Source: an uncultured delta proteobacterium (GTDB lineage Bacteria > Myxococcota_A > Polyangia > Polyangiales > Polyangiaceae). Taken from it: a stretch of DNA of 64,000 bases. Position numbers: made by a program. Where the stretch lies: NCBI GenBank assembly GCA_963716725.1, contig CAVQUB010000001.1:160001-224000 (forward strand), written 5' to 3'. This document shows positions 34,201-40,200 of this stretch, piece by piece (positions within the stretch are counted from its first letter, which is position 1; each line of letters opens with the position of its first letter).

Positions 34201-37200
34201 GTTTGCGAAGACCGGAAAGCTCTACTTCAGCGACATCCCGAACACGCGCATCCACGAGCTCTCGCCGCCGAGCAGCGTGAGCGTGTATCGAGAACCGAGC
34301 GGTCAGGCCAACGGGCTCGGCATCGACCAGAATGGCTTGCTCGTTGCGTGTGAACACCAAGGCCGCCGGGTCAGCCGCACCCAGAGCGGCGGCACGGTGG
34401 TCTCGGTCGCCAGCACGTATCAAGGCAAGAAGCTCAACTCCCCGAACGACGTGATCGTGAAGAAGGACGGCAATTAACCGGCCAATCGTGCCGCGCTCCT
34501 CAGCGCGGAGATTTGCGAAGCAGTCTGCGGAGATCGGCTTGCAGTCGGCGGACACGTCGGACGAGCATGCGTGCGGAGTCGCGATCGAGCCCATCGTCTT
34601 GGGTGCGCTTCTGCACGTATCTAGCGAGGTCGGCCAGCAACTTGAGGGGCTCCGGAGCGGGGGGTGAGGCGGTAGCAGCCGTGGGAGTGATCATGGGGTA
34701 GCGCTCGGCAATTCGCTCGAGTGCCGCGGCGAATTCGGCGAACACGGTGGTGCCGGTGATCTCCGCGTATCGCAGGGTCATGCGGTAGTCGGTGTGGCCG
34801 AGCAATCGCATGACCGAGGGAAGGCTCATTCCTGCGGCCAGGAGCGATGTCGCGTAGGTGTGACGGAGGCGATGCGTCGTCATCGGTTCGGCGAACTGAA
34901 TGCCACGGCAGGCCTCGCGAAGTGCTTCTCTATAGGACCCGTAAAGGGTCTTGCGACCGGCGGCAGTTGCGAGCAGCAGGGTGCGCTTACGCGGGCCTGT
35001 CCGCCGCAATCTGGAAACGAGCGTGACGGTGCGCGGATCGAGCGGGACCAGCCGCTCGGTGGCGAGCTTGCCGAGCGGGACCTTGAGCAGGGTGTTGCCG
35101 CTGTGGTCGGTGCGGATGCAGTGGTACGGTAATGCGATGAGCTCGCCGATGCGAAGTCCGGTGCGTCGCATCAGGAGCAAACCGAGCTGATACATGCACC
35201 CGGACTTCTTGAACCGGCGCTGAAGGAGGAGGTCGGTGTCAGGAGGAACCGGGCGAGGCAGGTACTTGGGGAGCTTCGGCAGGTCGCTGCCACGGATCAA
35301 TGTGTCGGCGGGCACAGAGAGCACGCGCTGCTCTTCGAGCGACTCGAGGTACGCGCGGATGTTCTGGATGGCGTGAACTCGGGTGCAGGCAGCGAGGTGG
35401 CGAGCGTGGAGCCAGGCGAGCCAGGACTCGATGTGTGAACGCTCCAGGCCGACGAGAGACACATGGTTGGCGTTGAGCCAGATGTGAAACTGTCGGAGAT
35501 GGGTTTGATAGGCGCGTACGGTCTGCAGCGAGTGCGTGGGTTTGAGCAATTCGAGGAAGCGGCTGGCATGTGGTGGCAGCGGGAAATTCGAACGCGGCCA
35601 AGCGCAACGCGGGTCGAAGCCGAGGAGACCACGTGCATGAAGCCACTCGAAATACATCAGGGCGAGGCGGCGTTGGCGGGCGCGCACATGCTCGGGCACC
35701 GGCGCCTTGGATGGCTGCTGAAGGAAGCGATCGATTTCCGAGCTCTCGAGCTGCAGGATCGGCCGGCAGCTGGCCTTCAACCAAAGGTGAAATTGGCTCA
35801 GAACGCCGCGCGCTCTCGGCTCGCGCTGCAAGAATTCGAGCGCGAAAGGGGGCAGATGGGCGAGGGGGTCGCGGCGCGCCATGATGCAATCTCATTGCCG
35901 ATAGCGGGCGGCGATTTTCTTGAGCGCGCGCCGGAACTCGTCGGCCACGTCGGCCATGGACAACCGTACGTACTGCAGTGTTGTCTTCAGATCGGCATGG
36001 CCCATCATCTGTTGCAGAACGGGCAAGCGCACACCAGCGCGCGCCATGTCGGCCCCGAACGTGTGTCGAAACCGGTGGGGGTTGGCGATCGCGAGCACGC
36101 GCCGGCGACGACGATGCCGGAACAAGCTCCTCAGTCCAGCCGGCGTCATGGGCTGGCCGCGGCGCTTACCCTGTAAGACGACGAACAGACTCGGCTTGCT
36201 ACACTGCCTGGGCCTCTCGAGCTCGAGGTACCGCCGCAACGTGCGTGAGAGCACGAGCGGCAAGGGCAGTGCGCGGTCGCGCTGCCCTTTGCCGCAGACG
36301 CGAACACGGCCGTCGCTGAAAACGACGTCGGCAAGCTCGAGCCCGAGAACTTCAGCCGAGCGAAGGCCGCACAGGAGCATGAAATGGGTGATGGCGAGAT
36401 CCCTGTAGCGGGTGAGACTGCGAAGGAACGCTCGCACCTGCTCGGGCGTGAGCGGCTCGACGAGCTTGCGCGGCTCTTGGACACGGAGCTTGAGCACGCC
36501 GCGTCGTCGGAGCCGGTGAATGCCGAGGTAGTGATCACGACCGGGCCCCTTGTAGTGCGCAGCGGGCAAGCTCACGCGAGAGCCGACGCCGAGCTCTCGA
36601 TTCATCCAGAAGCGATACAGAAGGCGGGCTGTGGTCAACCGGCGATTGATTGAGCGTGGCTCTGCGCCGGCCTTGCGTTGCGCTGCGATGAACCCCAACA
36701 AGTCGCGTGCCTCGAGCTGCCGAAGCGAGCGCCCCTCAGCACGCATCCATCGATAGAGCAGCAGCAGATCATATGCGTACGCCCGGACCGTACGCCGGGA
36801 TAATCCGCGGACCCCGAGTGCCGAGAGAAACTCATGAACCTCGGCGACCACGCCATTGGCATCCACGAGCGAATGGCCAATCTCCGAGTGCGCGACCACG
36901 CGCAAGGCGGTACCGAGGTCGCATTGCAGGCTGCTGCTCATGGCACTGCACGTCGCTGGTGCGCTCGGATGCCGTGGTGCACGGTGGCGTGATCGCGACG
37001 GAACAGCGATGCAATCTCCAGGAGGCTGTAATGGCGATCGGACTGATTACGAATCAGCCACCAGAGCTCCTGGCGTGCACGTGACACGCTCGAGGTCCGA
37101 GCTCGGCCGCAGAGCTCTTCCCGAACCACGCCACGACGACGGCAGACGTCCTCGAGCAAGGGCGTGAGATTGCGCACCTCGAGCGCTGCGAGGACGGCCG

Positions 37201-40200
37201 TGGCGCTGCTCGCGCCGTCGGGGCTGGGCGCGGTCATCGAGGCACTCCGAAGAGCAGCATCTGCCTCAAATCGCAGAATTCACCGACGCCCACGAGGTCG
37301 CGATGACGGCGACGAACGCGAGCGGGCGGTGGTACCCAGTCCACGGTGTACAGCGGCGCCCCGTTGTCGATTGGGATCCCATCGTAGGCTGACAAGTCCG
37401 CTTCGACGCCCCGCTCTTCCGCAGCGAGCGCAACGCGGACCGGTTGCCCCTGCCACAGCGCCAGCGCCTCGAGCAGAAGCGGCAACGCCCGAGGGTGCGT
37501 CGGCGGGCGCAGCAACCGGGCCTTTAGAATCGTCTCGCTCGGGCCGGCCATTGCGAGCACGCGCATCTCCTGGGGCCCAGGTGCAACGCCCATCCAAATC
37601 GAGCTCATGGGTCGACTCCCGCTCCGAGCTCGATGCCGCCCCAACGACGGCCTCGGCTACGAACGGGACGACCATCTCACGATGGCCAAGTTTTTCGGCT
37701 GTGCTGTGCGTTACATTTTTCTGCTGCTCACGCCAGCGAGCCACTCGCGCCGCCGTCGTCGTGTGCCCCAGCTTGCTGCGGCGGTACCGGCGCACGGACG
37801 CTTCGCGCGACAAGCGTCGGCACTCCGGGTCGCAGAACAGCCTGCCGTAGTTGCACGCCGGGCAAACGTCGAGCACGTTGTGGCATCCAACGCGAGAACA
37901 CTTCGCCTGCTGAAAAACGACCACCGCTGCGAATGCAGAAAGCTGGCCGCAGCACGGGGTGGCATGCGAGGGTAGCGCCGTCGACCGCGACCACCGCGAC
38001 GACCTGAGGGCTCGGAAGTGACCATCCGGGCCCTCTCACTTTCTTCCGCCGTGATCATGGCTGATTCGACACGGCACGGGCCAACTCGGGGCAGAGGGAA
38101 CAGAACGAATCGCCCATATCGGCGACCCGAGATTGGCCGGTTAGATCTCAATCTCTATTTCACCGATCCGCCCTACGGAGGGAACCCGAACGAGCTGGGG
38201 TTCCAGGGCGTATTCCGCGTCGATCCGAGCGGCGCGCTCTCGCTGGTCGCGAGCGACATGTTTCGCCCCAACGGCATCGCGCTCGCGAGCGACGAGAAGA
38301 CGCTCTACGTGACGGACTCGGAGCAGAACTTCATTCGGACCTACGTCGTTGCCAGCGATGGTGCCACGTCGAGCCCGAAGAAGTTCCTCGACACTGCGGC
38401 GACCCCGGACGGCATGGCGGTGAACTTGCAAGGCGATCTGTTCATCAGCACCCAAGCGGGCGTCGAGGCGTACAAGGCCGACGGCACCAAGCTCGGCACC
38501 ATCCCCGTGCCCGAGCAGCCGTCCAATTGCACCTTCGGCGGCACGGACGGCAAGACGCTGTACATCACGGCGCGCAAATCGCTCTACCGGGTCGCGCTCG
38601 GCGTGGCGGGGTTGCCTTGAGGGTCCACTCAAATGCACGCCCCGGGCTTGTCCTCGCTCTCGCACATCGCAAGGCACGGACACACGCTCGCCCCGGCGCA
38701 TGACTTTCCTTTAGGGCACTCCGCGTCGCTCCAGCACGCATCGAGCACCGGGACCTTGCATACGCCGTTCACGCATGGCGTGTACGACTCGTCTCCGCAG
38801 TCGAAGTCCTGCTGGCAGCAGCCGTCCGTCGGCGCCATGCACCAACCGAGCTTGTCCTCTTGGTGGCAGTCGAGGCCGCAGGCGCACACGCTCGCGCCGG
38901 TGCAGAGCCCGAATTGGCAATCGGAGTCGATCCAGCAGCGGTCGGTGGGCGGCATCGCGAGGCAGACTCCCGAGACACAATTTATCGGCTGGGGCGGGCC
39001 GTCGTCGGGGCCGCCGGGCTCGTAACAATCGTACTTCGTCGAGCAGCAAAGCGTGTTGCCCCCGGCACCGGAGCTGCCGCCGGATCCCGAGCTGCCGCCT
39101 GCGCCGCCTGCGCCGCCTGCGCCGTCCTTCGAGACTGAACCACCGCAGGCGGCGACCGAGAGCGCAGCGCCGAGCAAGAACCATCGCGTCATCATCGAGT
39201 GGGGTGAGTGCACCGGGCGTGCCACGCACGCGGGCGGGTTTGGGTGCGTGTTGGACCACTAGTGACACACGCTGGCACAGCAAACGGGCCGGAGTGTCAG
39301 GGGGCGGGCCGCGCGCTGAGATCTCGTCGTTCGCTCGAAGCAGGCGGCTCGGGCGAAGCGGCGCCACGAGGGAGGCGCATCAGCGTGTGTCCGAGGAGCG
39401 GCAGAGCTTCGGGACCGTTGGCGGCGACGTCACCGGCCGCCGCGCCTCCACCCGCTCCCGCCGAGGCCGCCCCTGCAATGAAGCCGTCGACGAAGAAGCC
39501 GGCCTACAGCCCTGAAGCGCCTTGATCGCGCCCCTCCCTCAGTCGCACCCGACCGCGATGGCGAGCGCGCGGCAGATGTCGCTCATCTTGTCCGGGCGGA
39601 CGGTGCCGACGAGCCGCGACAGATCTCGTTGTCGCACCGTTTGCACGTTGGCGAGATTGGCGCATGACGGCGCCTTCAGTCCGTCTTCGACACCGAGCTC
39701 GACTTCAGTGGGCGAGCCGTGCGTCGTGGTGGTGATTGGCACGACCGTGGCCGTCTGCAGAACATCGAGCAAGACCTGTCGACTCAGCACCAGGACCGGT
39801 CGCCGCTTGTCGGGCGGCCGGAACGCGTAGAGGCGGATCTCGCCGCGGCTCACTTCTCGGGCCATGCTTGCCCCTCGAGCATGGCTTCGACATCTGCCAG
39901 GAGCTCGTCGTGCTTGCCCGCGAATGCGCTGCGGATGCTCTGGTCGATGTCACGCCGGCGCTTCGCGTCGAGGTACAGCAAGACCGCATCGCGGATGAAG
40001 GCCGAGCGGCCCTCCTTCTTGGTCTTGGGATCGCGGTCGATGCGCGCGAGCAACTCGCGGTCGACCGAGATTCTGAACGGGCTTGGCGCTCATGTTGGGA
40101 ATATCACACATGAACCATGTTGCGTCGAGCCACCATGCGAGGCCATGCGTGCGAAACCGAGCTTTACGCTGCTCATCCCCCCGACTACGAGCGGGCCATG

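Follow-up and report, generated by a model that had tools for sequence, protein, structure and literature searches.

Why does one set of accessory genes head two transposable elements whose recombination enzymes are unrelated? We addressed this question at a mobile element in the window, the whole 64,000-nucleotide stretch of DNA analysed here. An earlier note had described an element of 3,684 bp. The element is real, but the inserted DNA is 3,678 bp (34475-38152), with five ORFs, all on the minus strand. Its ends and the gene that it interrupts are as follows.

33875-34474, plus strand: 5' part of the host gene, SMP-30/gluconolactonase-type (Pfam SGL, E 6e-15)
34471-34474, no strand: 4-bp core (CAAT on the plus strand) common to target and element, the putative crossover region at the downstream end
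34475-34487, plus strand: 13-bp inverted repeat TAACCGGCCAATC, downstream end
38131-38143, plus strand: 13-bp inverted repeat GATTGGCCGGTTA, upstream end
38144-38152, plus strand: 9-bp terminal spacer GATCTCAAT, which includes the 4-bp core
38153-38620, plus strand: 3' part of the host gene (ORF calls and restored frame)

Removing 34475-38152 by script returned the host gene to a single 356-codon frame, which together with the SGL match confirms the reported splitting of a gluconolactonase-type gene. The 13-bp inverted repeats were also found as claimed and are perfect; only 1/3000 random window pairs reached this length in a control. The 4-bp core is present at both junctions and lies beside the same end in the C31 and C33 copies and in relatives, and the repeat type of the downstream end recurs in loci L047, L059, L169-L175, L177, and L237. 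At the upstream end, GATCTCAA is constant in C1 (the contig of the window), C15, C31, C33, L169, L171, L175, and L237. Given that the upstream spacer does not vary between unrelated sites, apart from lineage-level variants in L047, L059, and L073, we rejected for this element the 6-bp footprint that Tn554-related and SE elements bring along from the site they last occupied. The junctions, read from assembled contigs, would fit one crossover near one spacer edge, and the 9-bp spacer would separate both repeats in a putative circle.

Other copies in this assembly lie on C33 (99.5% identical), C31 (99.6%), and, in part, C15 (97.5%). Since the flanks of the C31 and C33 copies are alike (95.6% and 97.7% identical), we counted them as one site; the C15 copy occupies a related site (78% over 81 bp). 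The insertions, previously put at two or three, thus amount to three sites in this assembly. Frameshifts were present in the C31 and C15 copies.

Pfam matches verified the DnaA C-terminal domain and two tyrosine recombinases that had been reported, which lie at the downstream side of the operon:

34500-35882, minus strand: long tyrosine recombinase, 460 aa, TnpB-like (Pfam Phage_integrase)
35892-36941, minus strand: short tyrosine recombinase, 349 aa, TnpA-like (Pfam Phage_integrase; catalytic motifs intact)
36938-37237, minus strand: stand-alone DnaA domain IV helix-turn-helix, 99 aa (Pfam Bac_DnaA_C, E 8e-13)

The long recombinase retains the R, H-x-x-R, H, and Y catalytic motifs, followed by a helical C-terminal extension, and it matched best to the long integrase of an element on a Dietzia plasmid (31% over 416 aa, E 1e-43); the short integrase of that element matched our short recombinase (42%, E 4e-43). 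Judged by sequence, the element is a compact Tn554-related two-recombinase transposon lacking TnpC. It shares with Tn554 relatives the adjoining short and long recombinases in one operon, both with catalytic motifs and each best matching its same-order Dietzia partner, as well as terminal inverted repeats around a short spacer and multiple copies. Actinobacterial Tn554 relatives with a TnpA/TnpB/TnpC set have been treated previously, with TnpC missing from some and a long recombinase of 611-828 aa (PMC3414803). In contrast, our long recombinase has 460 aa, TnpC/DUF6262 is absent, and the inverted repeat begins 12 bp past the recombinase stop. The Dietzia pair is annotated alongside DUF6262, and the C-terminal 65 aa of our long recombinase did not match the DUF6262 ORF. 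The element also differs from Tn554 and SE in the cassette upstream and in its perfect 13-bp repeats, whose 9-bp spacer is mostly constant. SE/GInt elements are strand-biased and circularising (PMC10214605), and their circles form without an empty site; as for their core set intA-tfp-intB-srap, we found no tfp-sized or srap-positioned ORF within the element. RIT elements are likewise IS-sized, with tyrosine recombinases and terminal inverted repeats, but have three recombinases rather than two and longer repeats, and our recombinases shared only 25-33% identity with the trios that L037 and L084 carry as insertions. The DnaA domain IV ORF is absent from L047, L059, L073, L171-L173, L175, and L178, and its relatives follow transposons with DDE and AAA-ATPase genes; it is a separate, lineage-specific passenger limited to this clade.

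The genes upstream of these are shared with IS21. An IS21 element previously placed at C1:286700-289811 is present, but its limits are approximately C1:286566 to the contig end at 289900, where NF033546 (IstA) scored 248.9 bits (cut-off 160) and NF038214 (IstB) 221.1 (cut-off 200). It starts with TGT and has imperfect repeats, its right end being cut by the contig end; its ends are putatively of the TGT...ACA type. Its leader gene product is 62% identical to that of our element, within the 59-63% claimed. Among 73 distinct full-length leaders, a set that mixes loci from leader and recombinase queries, 60 stood before istA, 12 before the recombinase pair, and 1 before a ParB-like gene. Hence, the leader does mostly precede istA, as had been claimed, but the "several phyla" of that claim rest largely on short MAG contigs, whose binning may be uncertain, and most records are Myxococcota. 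The cassette was present in 7/8 relatives of the recombinase element with upstream DNA. The claim of one accessory module in a DDE transposon and a tyrosine-recombinase element was thus upheld, and the module also includes a promoter region and a predicted structured antisense-RNA unit: it is a portable front end of ~900 bp (RNA unit, Zn-finger ORF, and leader), and its back ends are IstA/IstB, a ParB-like gene with IstA/IstB, or the Tn554-related recombinase pair. IS21 has been described as two ORFs (PMC10122671), whereas the subgroup here carries the RNA unit and two overlapping ORFs upstream, and another subgroup form carries the Zn-finger ORF upstream and a small SSB-tail ORF downstream. 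We found no description of this cassette in the literature searched.

On the 73-row leader tree, the recombinase-linked label required 5 changes, and 0% of 200 bootstrap trees gave a single change. Five changes among IS21-linked leaders indicate recurrent exchange, and the recombinase family has swapped the cassette with IS21 about five times. Leader and short-recombinase identities were discordant (28% and 74% for C33 versus L171; 54% and 80% for C33 versus L047), and the nearest leader to that of L047 is an IS21 one (87%). The nesting of recombinase-linked leaders among IS21-linked ones would also be expected if the recombinase element merely scavenged the left part of a resident IS21 for its promoter, with proteins useful to IS21 alone or hitch-hiking in the recombinase element. 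Homology beginning just inside the ends, at the promoter, fits that reading, as does L177, a member of the same family whose upstream ORF is another one, unmatched by the leader profile (E 0.61). Every capture, however, took the complete unit through the leader stop codon, and the reading frames described below also speak against scavenging, which we regard as improbable.

The two cassette genes overlap in different frames:

37280-37924, minus strand: Zn-finger ORF, 214 aa, GTG start, with a Cys cluster, a linker, and a C-terminal CxxC
37234-37608, minus strand: leader, 124 aa, with an RNase H-like, RuvC/YqgF-type model; its stop overlaps the next start codon

The Cys-rich ORF had been reported as a separate upstream gene, but its 214 codons overlap ~110 of the leader, which itself has 124 aa rather than the 123 or 122 given. 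Neither matched Pfam, as reported for the leader. The Zn-finger protein is predicted to have an N-terminal Cys cluster with a basic helix, a disordered linker, and the C-terminal CxxC, which is encoded inside the leader gene in the other frame; 7 Cys are invariant in 49 rows. The Zn frame was open over 90 leader codons in 72/74 distinct loci, with the CxxC in 73/74. As a control, 116/243 windows of downstream genes were open (48%), and synonymous resampling would expect 15/73 open and 2.2/73 with the CxxC. Both frames were intact in 12/12 rows linked to the recombinases, and two clades among these have drifted to 84-89% identity without acquiring a stop. These sequence comparisons demonstrate selection on both overlapping frames.

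The leader stop overlapped the next start in 72/73 loci. The leader model had a pLDDT of 76 (averaging 57-71 over residues 61-110), and in a structure search (VIA-align, 48,161 chains) the top two matches were RuvC-type: the Cas12i1 RuvC domain (Z 10.0) and a poxvirus resolvase (Z 9.2). These Z-scores are middling, and sugar-kinase folds followed closely (8.5-8.9). Compared with the RuvC/YqgF-type group (RuvC, poxvirus resolvase, Cas12 RuvC, Spt6/Tex, TEFM, and IS110 DEDD), the leader has the same three-strand start, helix, two strands, and C-terminal helix, with 112-122 of its 124 residues aligned at Z 7.7-10. It differs in being a stand-alone 124-aa protein overlapped by a second gene and in its catalytic residues, whose register we took from profile alignment to known families. 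Across 97 rows, the first-strand Asp (position 9) was not kept (D 11%, A 30%, S 18%), position 64 was D/E in 64%, and the last-helix Asp (position 113) was conserved (D/E in 94%). Leader profiles matched RuvC-like families only at E 0.02-0.2, which does not tie them together, as those families interlink at ~1e-4; the link was not significant for IS110, RuvX, or RuvC. The leader models as a RuvC/YqgF-type fold without the first catalytic Asp; the earlier description as RNase H-like without a full acidic set stands, but the fold is better placed in this group than near S11 or PIWI.

Spt6, Tex, and TEFM domains are non-catalytic transcription factors. Their appearance among the leader's matches (Spt6/Tex, Z 8.1-8.3; TEFM, Z 7.2) suggests that the cassette might be purely a gene-expression device, with the antisense switch described below and two proteins that regulate the operon encoding them. 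The Zn-finger and basic helix would bind RNA and serve as a translational activator or antirepressor, and the dead RuvC-type domain would act on RNA polymerase as an elongation or antitermination factor. A comparable case would be Com of phage Mu, in which a Zn finger makes a GUG start accessible. Any back end needs controlled expression, so this reading explains portability without shared chemistry, and the RNA unit and the two proteins occur together, with the Zn-finger ORF following 20/26 RNA-model matches examined. We treat it as the main rival reading, less likely than not, with evidence from the other operon end, presented below, speaking against it.

The non-coding unit upstream of the Zn-finger ORF comprises the following:

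37918-37927, minus strand: repeat B, 10-nt, element-specific, containing the Zn-finger GTG start (alignment)
37944-37973, plus strand: predicted outward sigma70-type promoter (-35 at 37944-37949, extended -10 at 37965-37973)
37980-38045, plus strand: predicted ~65-nt antisense RNA (folds, duplex test, and wobble asymmetry)
37988-37997, minus strand: repeat A, the first 10-nt repeat copy and template of the antisense loop (alignment)
38007-38034, plus strand: conserved 11-bp hairpin, then a T-rich run on the plus strand (intrinsic-terminator-like)
38054-38084, minus strand: putative inward operon promoter, TTGGCC, 18-19 nt, CATGAT/GACGAT (sequence and alignment)

The putative inward promoter is common to the element and IS21 copies. 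For the outward promoter, invariant columns fell on the -35 and extended -10 of the opposite strand with a spacer fixed at 17-18 nt, near-consensus in 4/6 proteobacterial loci. The predicted RNA consists of a 5' hairpin, whose variable loop is complementary to repeats A and B, then a terminator hairpin and a U-rich tail. In the 11-bp hairpin, 9/11 pairs vary on both sides (45 rows), and non-canonical pairs were G-U 52 times on the antisense strand and 11 times on the sense strand. The 5' hairpin showed weak covariation. Repeats A and B matched their own partner over 8.2 nt versus 4.7 +/- 1.0 (16 types; 0/10,000 permutations), and the own repeat was the best duplex partner in only 7/16 types. 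Rfam searches of 16 loci at E <= 1 gave only one chance snoRNA match, outside the unit. These features probably constitute an antisense-gated operon head, with one mRNA from the inward promoter and a ~65-nt antisense RNA from the outward promoter in its 5' untranslated region. The exposed antisense loop would base-pair with both repeats, of which B covers the first start codon, and block translation of the Zn-finger ORF, with the leader and recombinase genes following by coupling; repression would scale with copy number, and element-specific sequences would prevent cross-repression between families.

Antisense control of a transposase is known from IS10 RNA-OUT. As with art200 of IS200 (PMC4513863), a small opposite-strand RNA is predicted at the 5' region, and it would block translation initiation. 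Unlike art200 and RNA-OUT, this predicted RNA does not cover the start codon and would reach it via a direct repeat that co-evolves with it; control would fall on an accessory Zn-finger gene rather than the transposase, and unrelated elements have exchanged the unit.

Conserved stems that enclose a variable loop could instead point to a guide RNA resembling the IS110 bridge RNA, the leader being an IS110 RuvC relic that aids target choice. The nearest named ESM Atlas cluster of the leader was DEDD_Tnp_IS110 at 0.89, a lead only, and ISCro4 ranked 46 (Z 6.8) in the fold search. Yet the variable segment matches the start-codon region of its own element rather than the flanks, and the same segment occurs with unrelated flanks (L027 versus L078; L080, L087, and L093). 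The IS110 RNA-binding part is absent, and a weak search found no longer fused form. We rejected identity with the IS110 domain and its invariant D-E-D-D for the leader, as PF01548 matched none of 107 members and hhalign gave E 0.03-0.04 over just 30-35 columns. A guide role is accordingly very improbable.

Type I toxin-antitoxin systems offer a parallel to an antisense RNA that works via a direct repeat covering a start codon. The cassette could thus be an addiction or host-interference unit, toxin-antitoxin-like or anti-defence, in which an unstable antisense RNA keeps the Zn-finger or leader protein, acting as a toxin or inhibitor, in check and element loss is penalised. Independence from recombination chemistry fits, and the best PDB match of the Zn-finger ORF is the zinc-finger protein YacG, at a non-significant E of 1.8. 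Against this, translational chaining to the recombinase (72/73) implies that toxin and transposase would be made together, PADLOC and PHROGs gave no match, and an intact cassette away from a transposase was not seen among the loci examined. We consider addiction unlikely, if a little less so than scavenging.

At the other operon end, an ORF with an acidic tail ending in PF followed istB in 5/6 leader-less elements versus 0/23 of those that bear the leader and have 350 nt or more of downstream sequence, a pattern that rests on about two independent lineages. Such tails occurred in 9/91,117 background frames, and the host's own SSB ends in DDDIPF. A purely gene-expression role leaves unexplained both the coincidence of leader loss with SSB-tail gain and the replication-flavoured passengers (DnaA domain IV and ParB-like).

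The reading that we favour is that the Zn-finger and leader assist, without catalysis of their own, at a step that the two chemistries share, a branched, single-strand-bridged intermediate that host replication must convert to a circle or a completed insertion. Junction binding would fall to the dead RuvC-type domain and binding of the adjacent DNA to the Zn-finger and basic helix, so that the intermediate is protected or passed on to replication-restart proteins, and leader-losing lineages would use the small SSB-tail mimic instead. A copy-out route for IS21 is assumed here; the IS21 literature consulted shows tandem junctions only. Host replication resolves one-strand exchanges of DDE elements (PMC7780238) and tyrosine recombinases (PMC10214605 and PMC3458562). 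Counting against a helper step, IstA and IstB suffice for integration in vitro (PMC10122671), and the majority of IS21 and Tn554 elements function with no helper of this kind. We give somewhat less than even weight to the two proteins helping to pass branched intermediates to host replication. More tentative is the full proposal of a helper cassette that is independent of the chemistry. In it, a Zn-finger/dead-RuvC pair, dual-coded and controlled by an antisense RNA of its own, would recognise branched, single-strand-bridged intermediates and pass them to host replication restart; elements of the DDE and tyrosine-recombinase kinds would trade the cassette, and SSB-tail mimic proteins could take its place.

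The repeated swapping of the cassette suggests that transposition of both kinds has a control or helper step in common, independent of the cutting enzyme. If the helper proposal is true, no earlier factor for the replication step in copy-out transposition would have been encoded by an element itself, and the metal-binding motif of the cassette would have arisen where a second frame overprinted one strand of an RNase H-fold gene, and would then have outlived that gene.

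The cassette, a 5' unit of ~900 bp made up of an RNA unit, a Zn-finger ORF (Zn ORF) and a 124-aa leader, heads both an IS21 element and the recombinase element in this genome. Leader relatives numbered 236 among 335 candidates, with 624 representatives at 50% clustering. In 73 distinct full-length leaders from the retrieved loci, the next gene was istA in 60, a recombinase pair in 12, and in one a ParB-like gene after which a distant IstA follows, confirming the earlier note's view that one module is common to DDE and tyrosine-recombinase elements. These two kinds of element are treated as unrelated machines. 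Recombinase-linked rows required five changes on the leader tree, forced by well-supported branches, and a single origin appeared in 0% of 200 bootstrap trees; the tree comprises 125 columns, and its long branches were flagged. Identities for the leader and the short recombinase were 28% and 74% between C33 of this assembly and locus L171, and 54% and 80% between C33 and L047. The nearest leader of all five recombinase-linked groups was IS21-linked, marginally so for the L171 group. The agreement of the identities with the leader tree indicates that the cassette was exchanged between backbones. L047 and this genome's IS21 become similar at the DNA level just inside the ends. By these sequence comparisons, the front end appears to have moved between DDE and tyrosine-recombinase elements at least about five times, implying a shared, selectable requirement beyond the catalytic core.

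Other carriers were also observed. L082:6001-9730 and L083 represent a third backbone with Zn ORF, leader, ParB-like gene, IstA and IstB, this IstA being only 25% identical to C1 IstA. L235 and L236 (C3 and C18 of another genome, G034, which has four RNA-model matches) hold a 4,985-bp multi-copy element in the order RNA unit, Zn ORF, overlapping ORF, ParB-like gene, distant IstA (33%), IstB and tail ORF; the overlapping ORF did not match the leader profile. Near-identical cassettes occur in L052 and L058, short contigs labelled Verrucomicrobiota and Burkholderiales, reflecting recent transfer or mis-binning. On plasmids, tblastn detected no leader, but the leader profile found L185, a Sandaracinus plasmid locus equipped with RNA unit, Zn ORF and leader; one pattern searched in viral contigs did not find the leader. 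Just left of the C1 IS21 element lies a reverse-transcriptase ORF (C1:285001-286390, L001) that we take, by its motifs, to resemble a group II intron, and the genome holds several partial copies of the end of this unit.

The recombinase element carries all five of its ORFs on the minus strand and lies inside an SMP-30/gluconolactonase-type gene. The earlier note's mobile insertion was upheld, whereas its size of 3,684 bp was not, the inserted DNA being 3,678 bp (34475-38152). The split gene that it had reported was verified by a Pfam SGL match of the 5' half (E 6e-15) and by removal of 34475-38152 by script, which left one 356-codon frame. The 13-bp inverted repeats were likewise found to be perfect (34475-34487 and 38131-38143), a length reached by 1 of 3,000 random window pairs. 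Other copies in the assembly are on C33 (99.5%), C31 (99.6%) and C15 (97.5%, partial); C31 and C33 have common flanks (95.6% and 97.7%) and were counted as one site, and the C15 copy lies in a related site. In contigs from two other studies the right junction is likewise joined to this host gene, and one of them also has a further left junction.

The upstream junction reads TTGAGATC and then the repeat in C1, C15, C31, C33, L169, L171, L175 and L237, the downstream junction runs on into target DNA, mostly TTGAC, and these ends are common to the element and its relatives. A circle would have a 9-bp spacer between the repeats, with the same spacing in L047, L059 and L073, and the junction pattern is compatible with a single crossover close to one spacer edge. 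This pattern differs from that of SE and Tn554, in which a 6-bp footprint is carried along (PMC10214605). Contigs of four DNA runs contained no end-to-end joint, a result that does not bear on whether circles form. No DnaA boxes were detected in the element with one mismatch allowed. The frequent landing site TTGAC, which is similar to a -35 box and to IS21 tips, belongs to a repeated intergenic family of ~200 bp, whose members at several genome positions are about 68% alike, preceding a repeated unannotated ORF (C33:134700-135023, C31, C15; L237; run X5); 9-10 nt are common to the C33 target and the C1 IS21 at its right end. As an explanation of the shared cassette, promoter scavenging by the recombinase element is very improbable. 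Also in the window, an 18-bp tandem repeat (8 copies, 33926-34121) codes for a linker of Gly, Ser and Ala within the interrupted gene, which is lipoprotein-like. At 39539-40053 (minus strand), visual reading of the frames gave a 108-aa MazF/PemK-like ORF preceded by a small ribbon-helix-helix-like ORF, likely a type II toxin-antitoxin pair.

The 349-aa and 460-aa recombinases have intact catalytic motifs. Both best match integrases of a Dietzia plasmid element, in the same order: the short one at 42% (E 4e-43) and the long one at 31% over 416 aa (E 1e-43). A DUF6262 gene belongs to that element as well. Identity to the recombinase trios of L037 and L084 was only 25-33%. In those two loci (L037:3740-7210 and L084:7350-10890), a leader-bearing istA is broken by RIT-like elements of three recombinases, which have long inverted repeats of their own; RitA/TnpA features from PMC8138268 were used for orientation. 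Actinobacterial recombinase pairs of this type are described as Tn554-related in PMC3414803. By sequence, the window element appears akin to this group in its working, yet two group features are lacking, as its long recombinase is much shorter than theirs and TnpC is absent. The recombinase element is a compact member of the Tn554 group, 3.3-3.7 kb in length and with defined ends.

A search of 401 genomes of the phylum with the short recombinase yielded one more element, which is truncated. The long recombinase retrieved 13 metagenome loci, two of them weak partial matches and three without upstream DNA; the leader was present in seven of the remaining eight, at 30-87% identity. The exception, L177 (1-420), has the same downstream repeat but a ~95-aa upstream ORF that did not match the leader profile (E 0.61). 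The DnaA domain IV ORF is limited to the clade of the window element. Four other relatives (L196, L197, L201 and L202), 45-62% identical to the window ORF, stand alone behind transposons with a DDE integrase and an AAA_22 ATPase, which are likely the donor of this passenger.

The Zn ORF is 214 aa long, and its last part covers about 110 leader codons in another frame. Scanning 117 loci gave 86 with a full leader and, after removal of duplicates, 74 distinct loci; the Zn frame was open across the first 90 leader codons in 72 and contained CxxC in 73, these rows being non-independent kin with leaders spanning 30-89% identity. As controls, the same frame in downstream genes was open in 116 of 243 windows, and synonymous resampling predicted 15 of 73 open and 2.2 of 73 with CxxC; the third forward frame (open in 5 of 74) was discarded as an unfair control. 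Seven Cys are invariant in 49 rows, including the C-terminal pair. The structural model has pLDDT values of 89-98 for residues 1-70 and 88 for residues 161-170 with a disordered linker between, and we infer that the distant C-terminal Cys pair would fold back, completing a second zinc site. No significant fold match for the whole model was found in PDB, BFVD or a wide search. The conserved overlap of the two frames, ~330 nt long, accounts for the scarcity of the Zn-finger gene in protein databases (2 matches) and for its lack of annotation on most carrier plasmids.

The Zn ORF without a leader heads IS21 on proteobacterial plasmids (25 plasmid records), and five of the seven such loci viewed have a Zn-istA-istB-small ORF layout. 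These plasmid Zn ORFs keep the C-terminal CxxC. IstA of the five loci formed one clade nested in leader-bearing lineages in a FastTree phylogeny with sampling biased towards leaders; 11 of its 14 'other' rows come from leader loci missed by label, and the position of the Zn-only clade alone was used. This nesting and the kept CxxC suggest that the Zn ORF/leader pair is ancestral, with CxxC outliving the leader gene.

The ~200 nt upstream of the Zn ORF, absent from the earlier note, are conserved in both element types (45 aligned rows, from 50 non-redundant with the anchor). The unit opens with a putative inward promoter, followed by an A-rich run, an 11-bp hairpin and a 10-nt direct repeat (repeat A); two short boxes at a fixed distance come next, and repeat B, which includes the GTG start, closes it. 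Both sides of the hairpin vary in 9 of 11 pairs, a count above that of each of 500 shuffles and of every slid control. Its non-canonical pairs read as G-U in 52 cases on the opposite strand and in 11 on the sense strand, a single column giving 31 of the 52. On the opposite strand, the invariant columns correspond to T and G in a -35 box and to TG plus the conserved A of an extended -10, with a spacer of 17-18 nt between the boxes in 44 of 45 rows. This outward promoter may be weak in Myxococcota, with the last -10 base usually C, and its register is near consensus in four of six proteobacterial loci. The implied antisense RNA of 61-69 nt is predicted in most examples to form a 5' hairpin, with weak covariation, and a terminator, the variable segment lying in the loop.

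Repeats A and B co-vary: their longest shared word was 8.2 nt within an element vs 4.7 +/- 1.0 between elements (16 types; 0 of 10,000 permutations), and predicted duplexes had -26.1 vs -18.6 kcal/mol, with an element's own partner ranking first in 7 of 16 types. Rfam contained no match for the RNA unit. A model derived from our alignment detected recombinase-linked loci outside the training set and 16 of 61 related genomes, and a Zn ORF lies behind 20 of the 26 matches examined. At the other end of the cassette, the stop of the leader overlaps the start of the next gene in 72 of 73. IS10 RNA-OUT, P1 c4, P4 CI and Mu Com are analogues of antisense/Zn-finger control. The nearest described logic to that of the predicted antisense unit is art200 of IS200 (PMC4513863). 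Pure regulation of gene expression is in our judgment a somewhat unlikely role for the whole cassette. We rejected a guide RNA, an extremely improbable reading, since its variable segment shows no correspondence to the flanks. Truncated or internally deleted copies that retain the 5' RNA unit were also seen (C5:720551-721634; L209, L221/L238, L231), in some of which the downstream gene is not intact.

The AlphaFold model of the leader (97 sequences, pLDDT 76) runs three strands, helix, strand, short helix, strand, helix. Top matches among 48,161 chains were Cas12i1 RuvC (Z 10.0, rmsd 2.9, 122 aligned) and canarypox resolvase (9.2, 3.5, 112), followed by sugar kinases (Z 8.5-8.9), Spt6/Tex (8.1-8.3), Ydc2 (8.0), RuvC (7.7) and the IS110 member ISCro4 (6.8). 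With these middling Z-scores, the model supports the fold class behind the RNase-H-like topology and weak matches noted earlier, with a RuvC-type chain on top, and does not support a family assignment. Foldseek returned ribosomal S11-type matches alone (TM about 0.4), and a PDB sequence search nothing below E 0.26. The reported absence of a conserved acidic triad held: the first-strand Asp position is D in 11% of rows, position 64 is D/E in 64% and position 113 is D/E in 94%. With these counts, a standard nuclease site in the leader is unlikely. Descent from IS110 was rejected, as the leader profile had no significant similarity to IS110, RuvX or RuvC, and an Atlas lead (DEDD_Tnp_IS110 at 0.89) is all that remains. 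A weak search did not find a longer fused form of the leader.

A small ORF with an acidic ..PF tail follows istB in five of six elements without an intact leader (four of the five proteobacterial ones plus the four-copy element of G034) and in none of the 23 that carry the leader and have 350 nt or more downstream. These counts come from 36 loci, seven with too little downstream DNA being left out, and amount to only about two independent contrasts. The genome background of such tails is 9 of 91,117 frames. SSB of this genome ends in DDDIPF, and the SSB tail motif binds primase and other partners (PMC5872125). Overall, two unrelated families of 63-93 aa ORFs have SSB-like acidic tails (..DEIPF, ..DDIPF, ..DDLPF), in IS21 and DDE+AAA transposons, and none of three scanned had a Pfam match:

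L182:6187-6402, SSB-like tail ORF
L183:6260-6451, SSB-like tail ORF
L186:5912-6124, SSB-like tail ORF
L188:6176-6382, SSB-like tail ORF
L236, SSB-like tail ORF after istB
L196 and L197, SSB-like tail ORF after the DnaA_C ORF

The function of the cassette would have to suit both DDE and tyrosine-recombinase chemistry, and a candidate shared step is a branched one-strand intermediate resolved by host replication. IS21 would use such a copy-out route. Resolution of such intermediates by host replication is described for DDE copy-out elements (PMC7780238), SE elements (PMC10214605) and integrons (PMC3458562). The presence of the tail ORF in leader-less elements favours a replication interface, and we tentatively propose that the Zn ORF and leader proteins may help pass branched intermediates on to host replication. 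An addiction or anti-defence unit, as an alternative role for the same genes, seems improbable.

Both back ends are of known kinds, IS21 being described as two ORFs in PMC10122671. The observation of a shared module is real, and the cassette is possibly a new type of such module. We found no published description of the cassette, overlap or RNA in full-text literature searches; ISfinder, most subscription papers and supplements were outside this scope, and an extra-ORF entry could exist. If the cassette serves in hand-over to host replication, a long-open step of copy-out transposition would become testable with two small proteins. If it serves in regulation, it would represent a new family of orthogonal antisense switches in which seed and target co-evolve.
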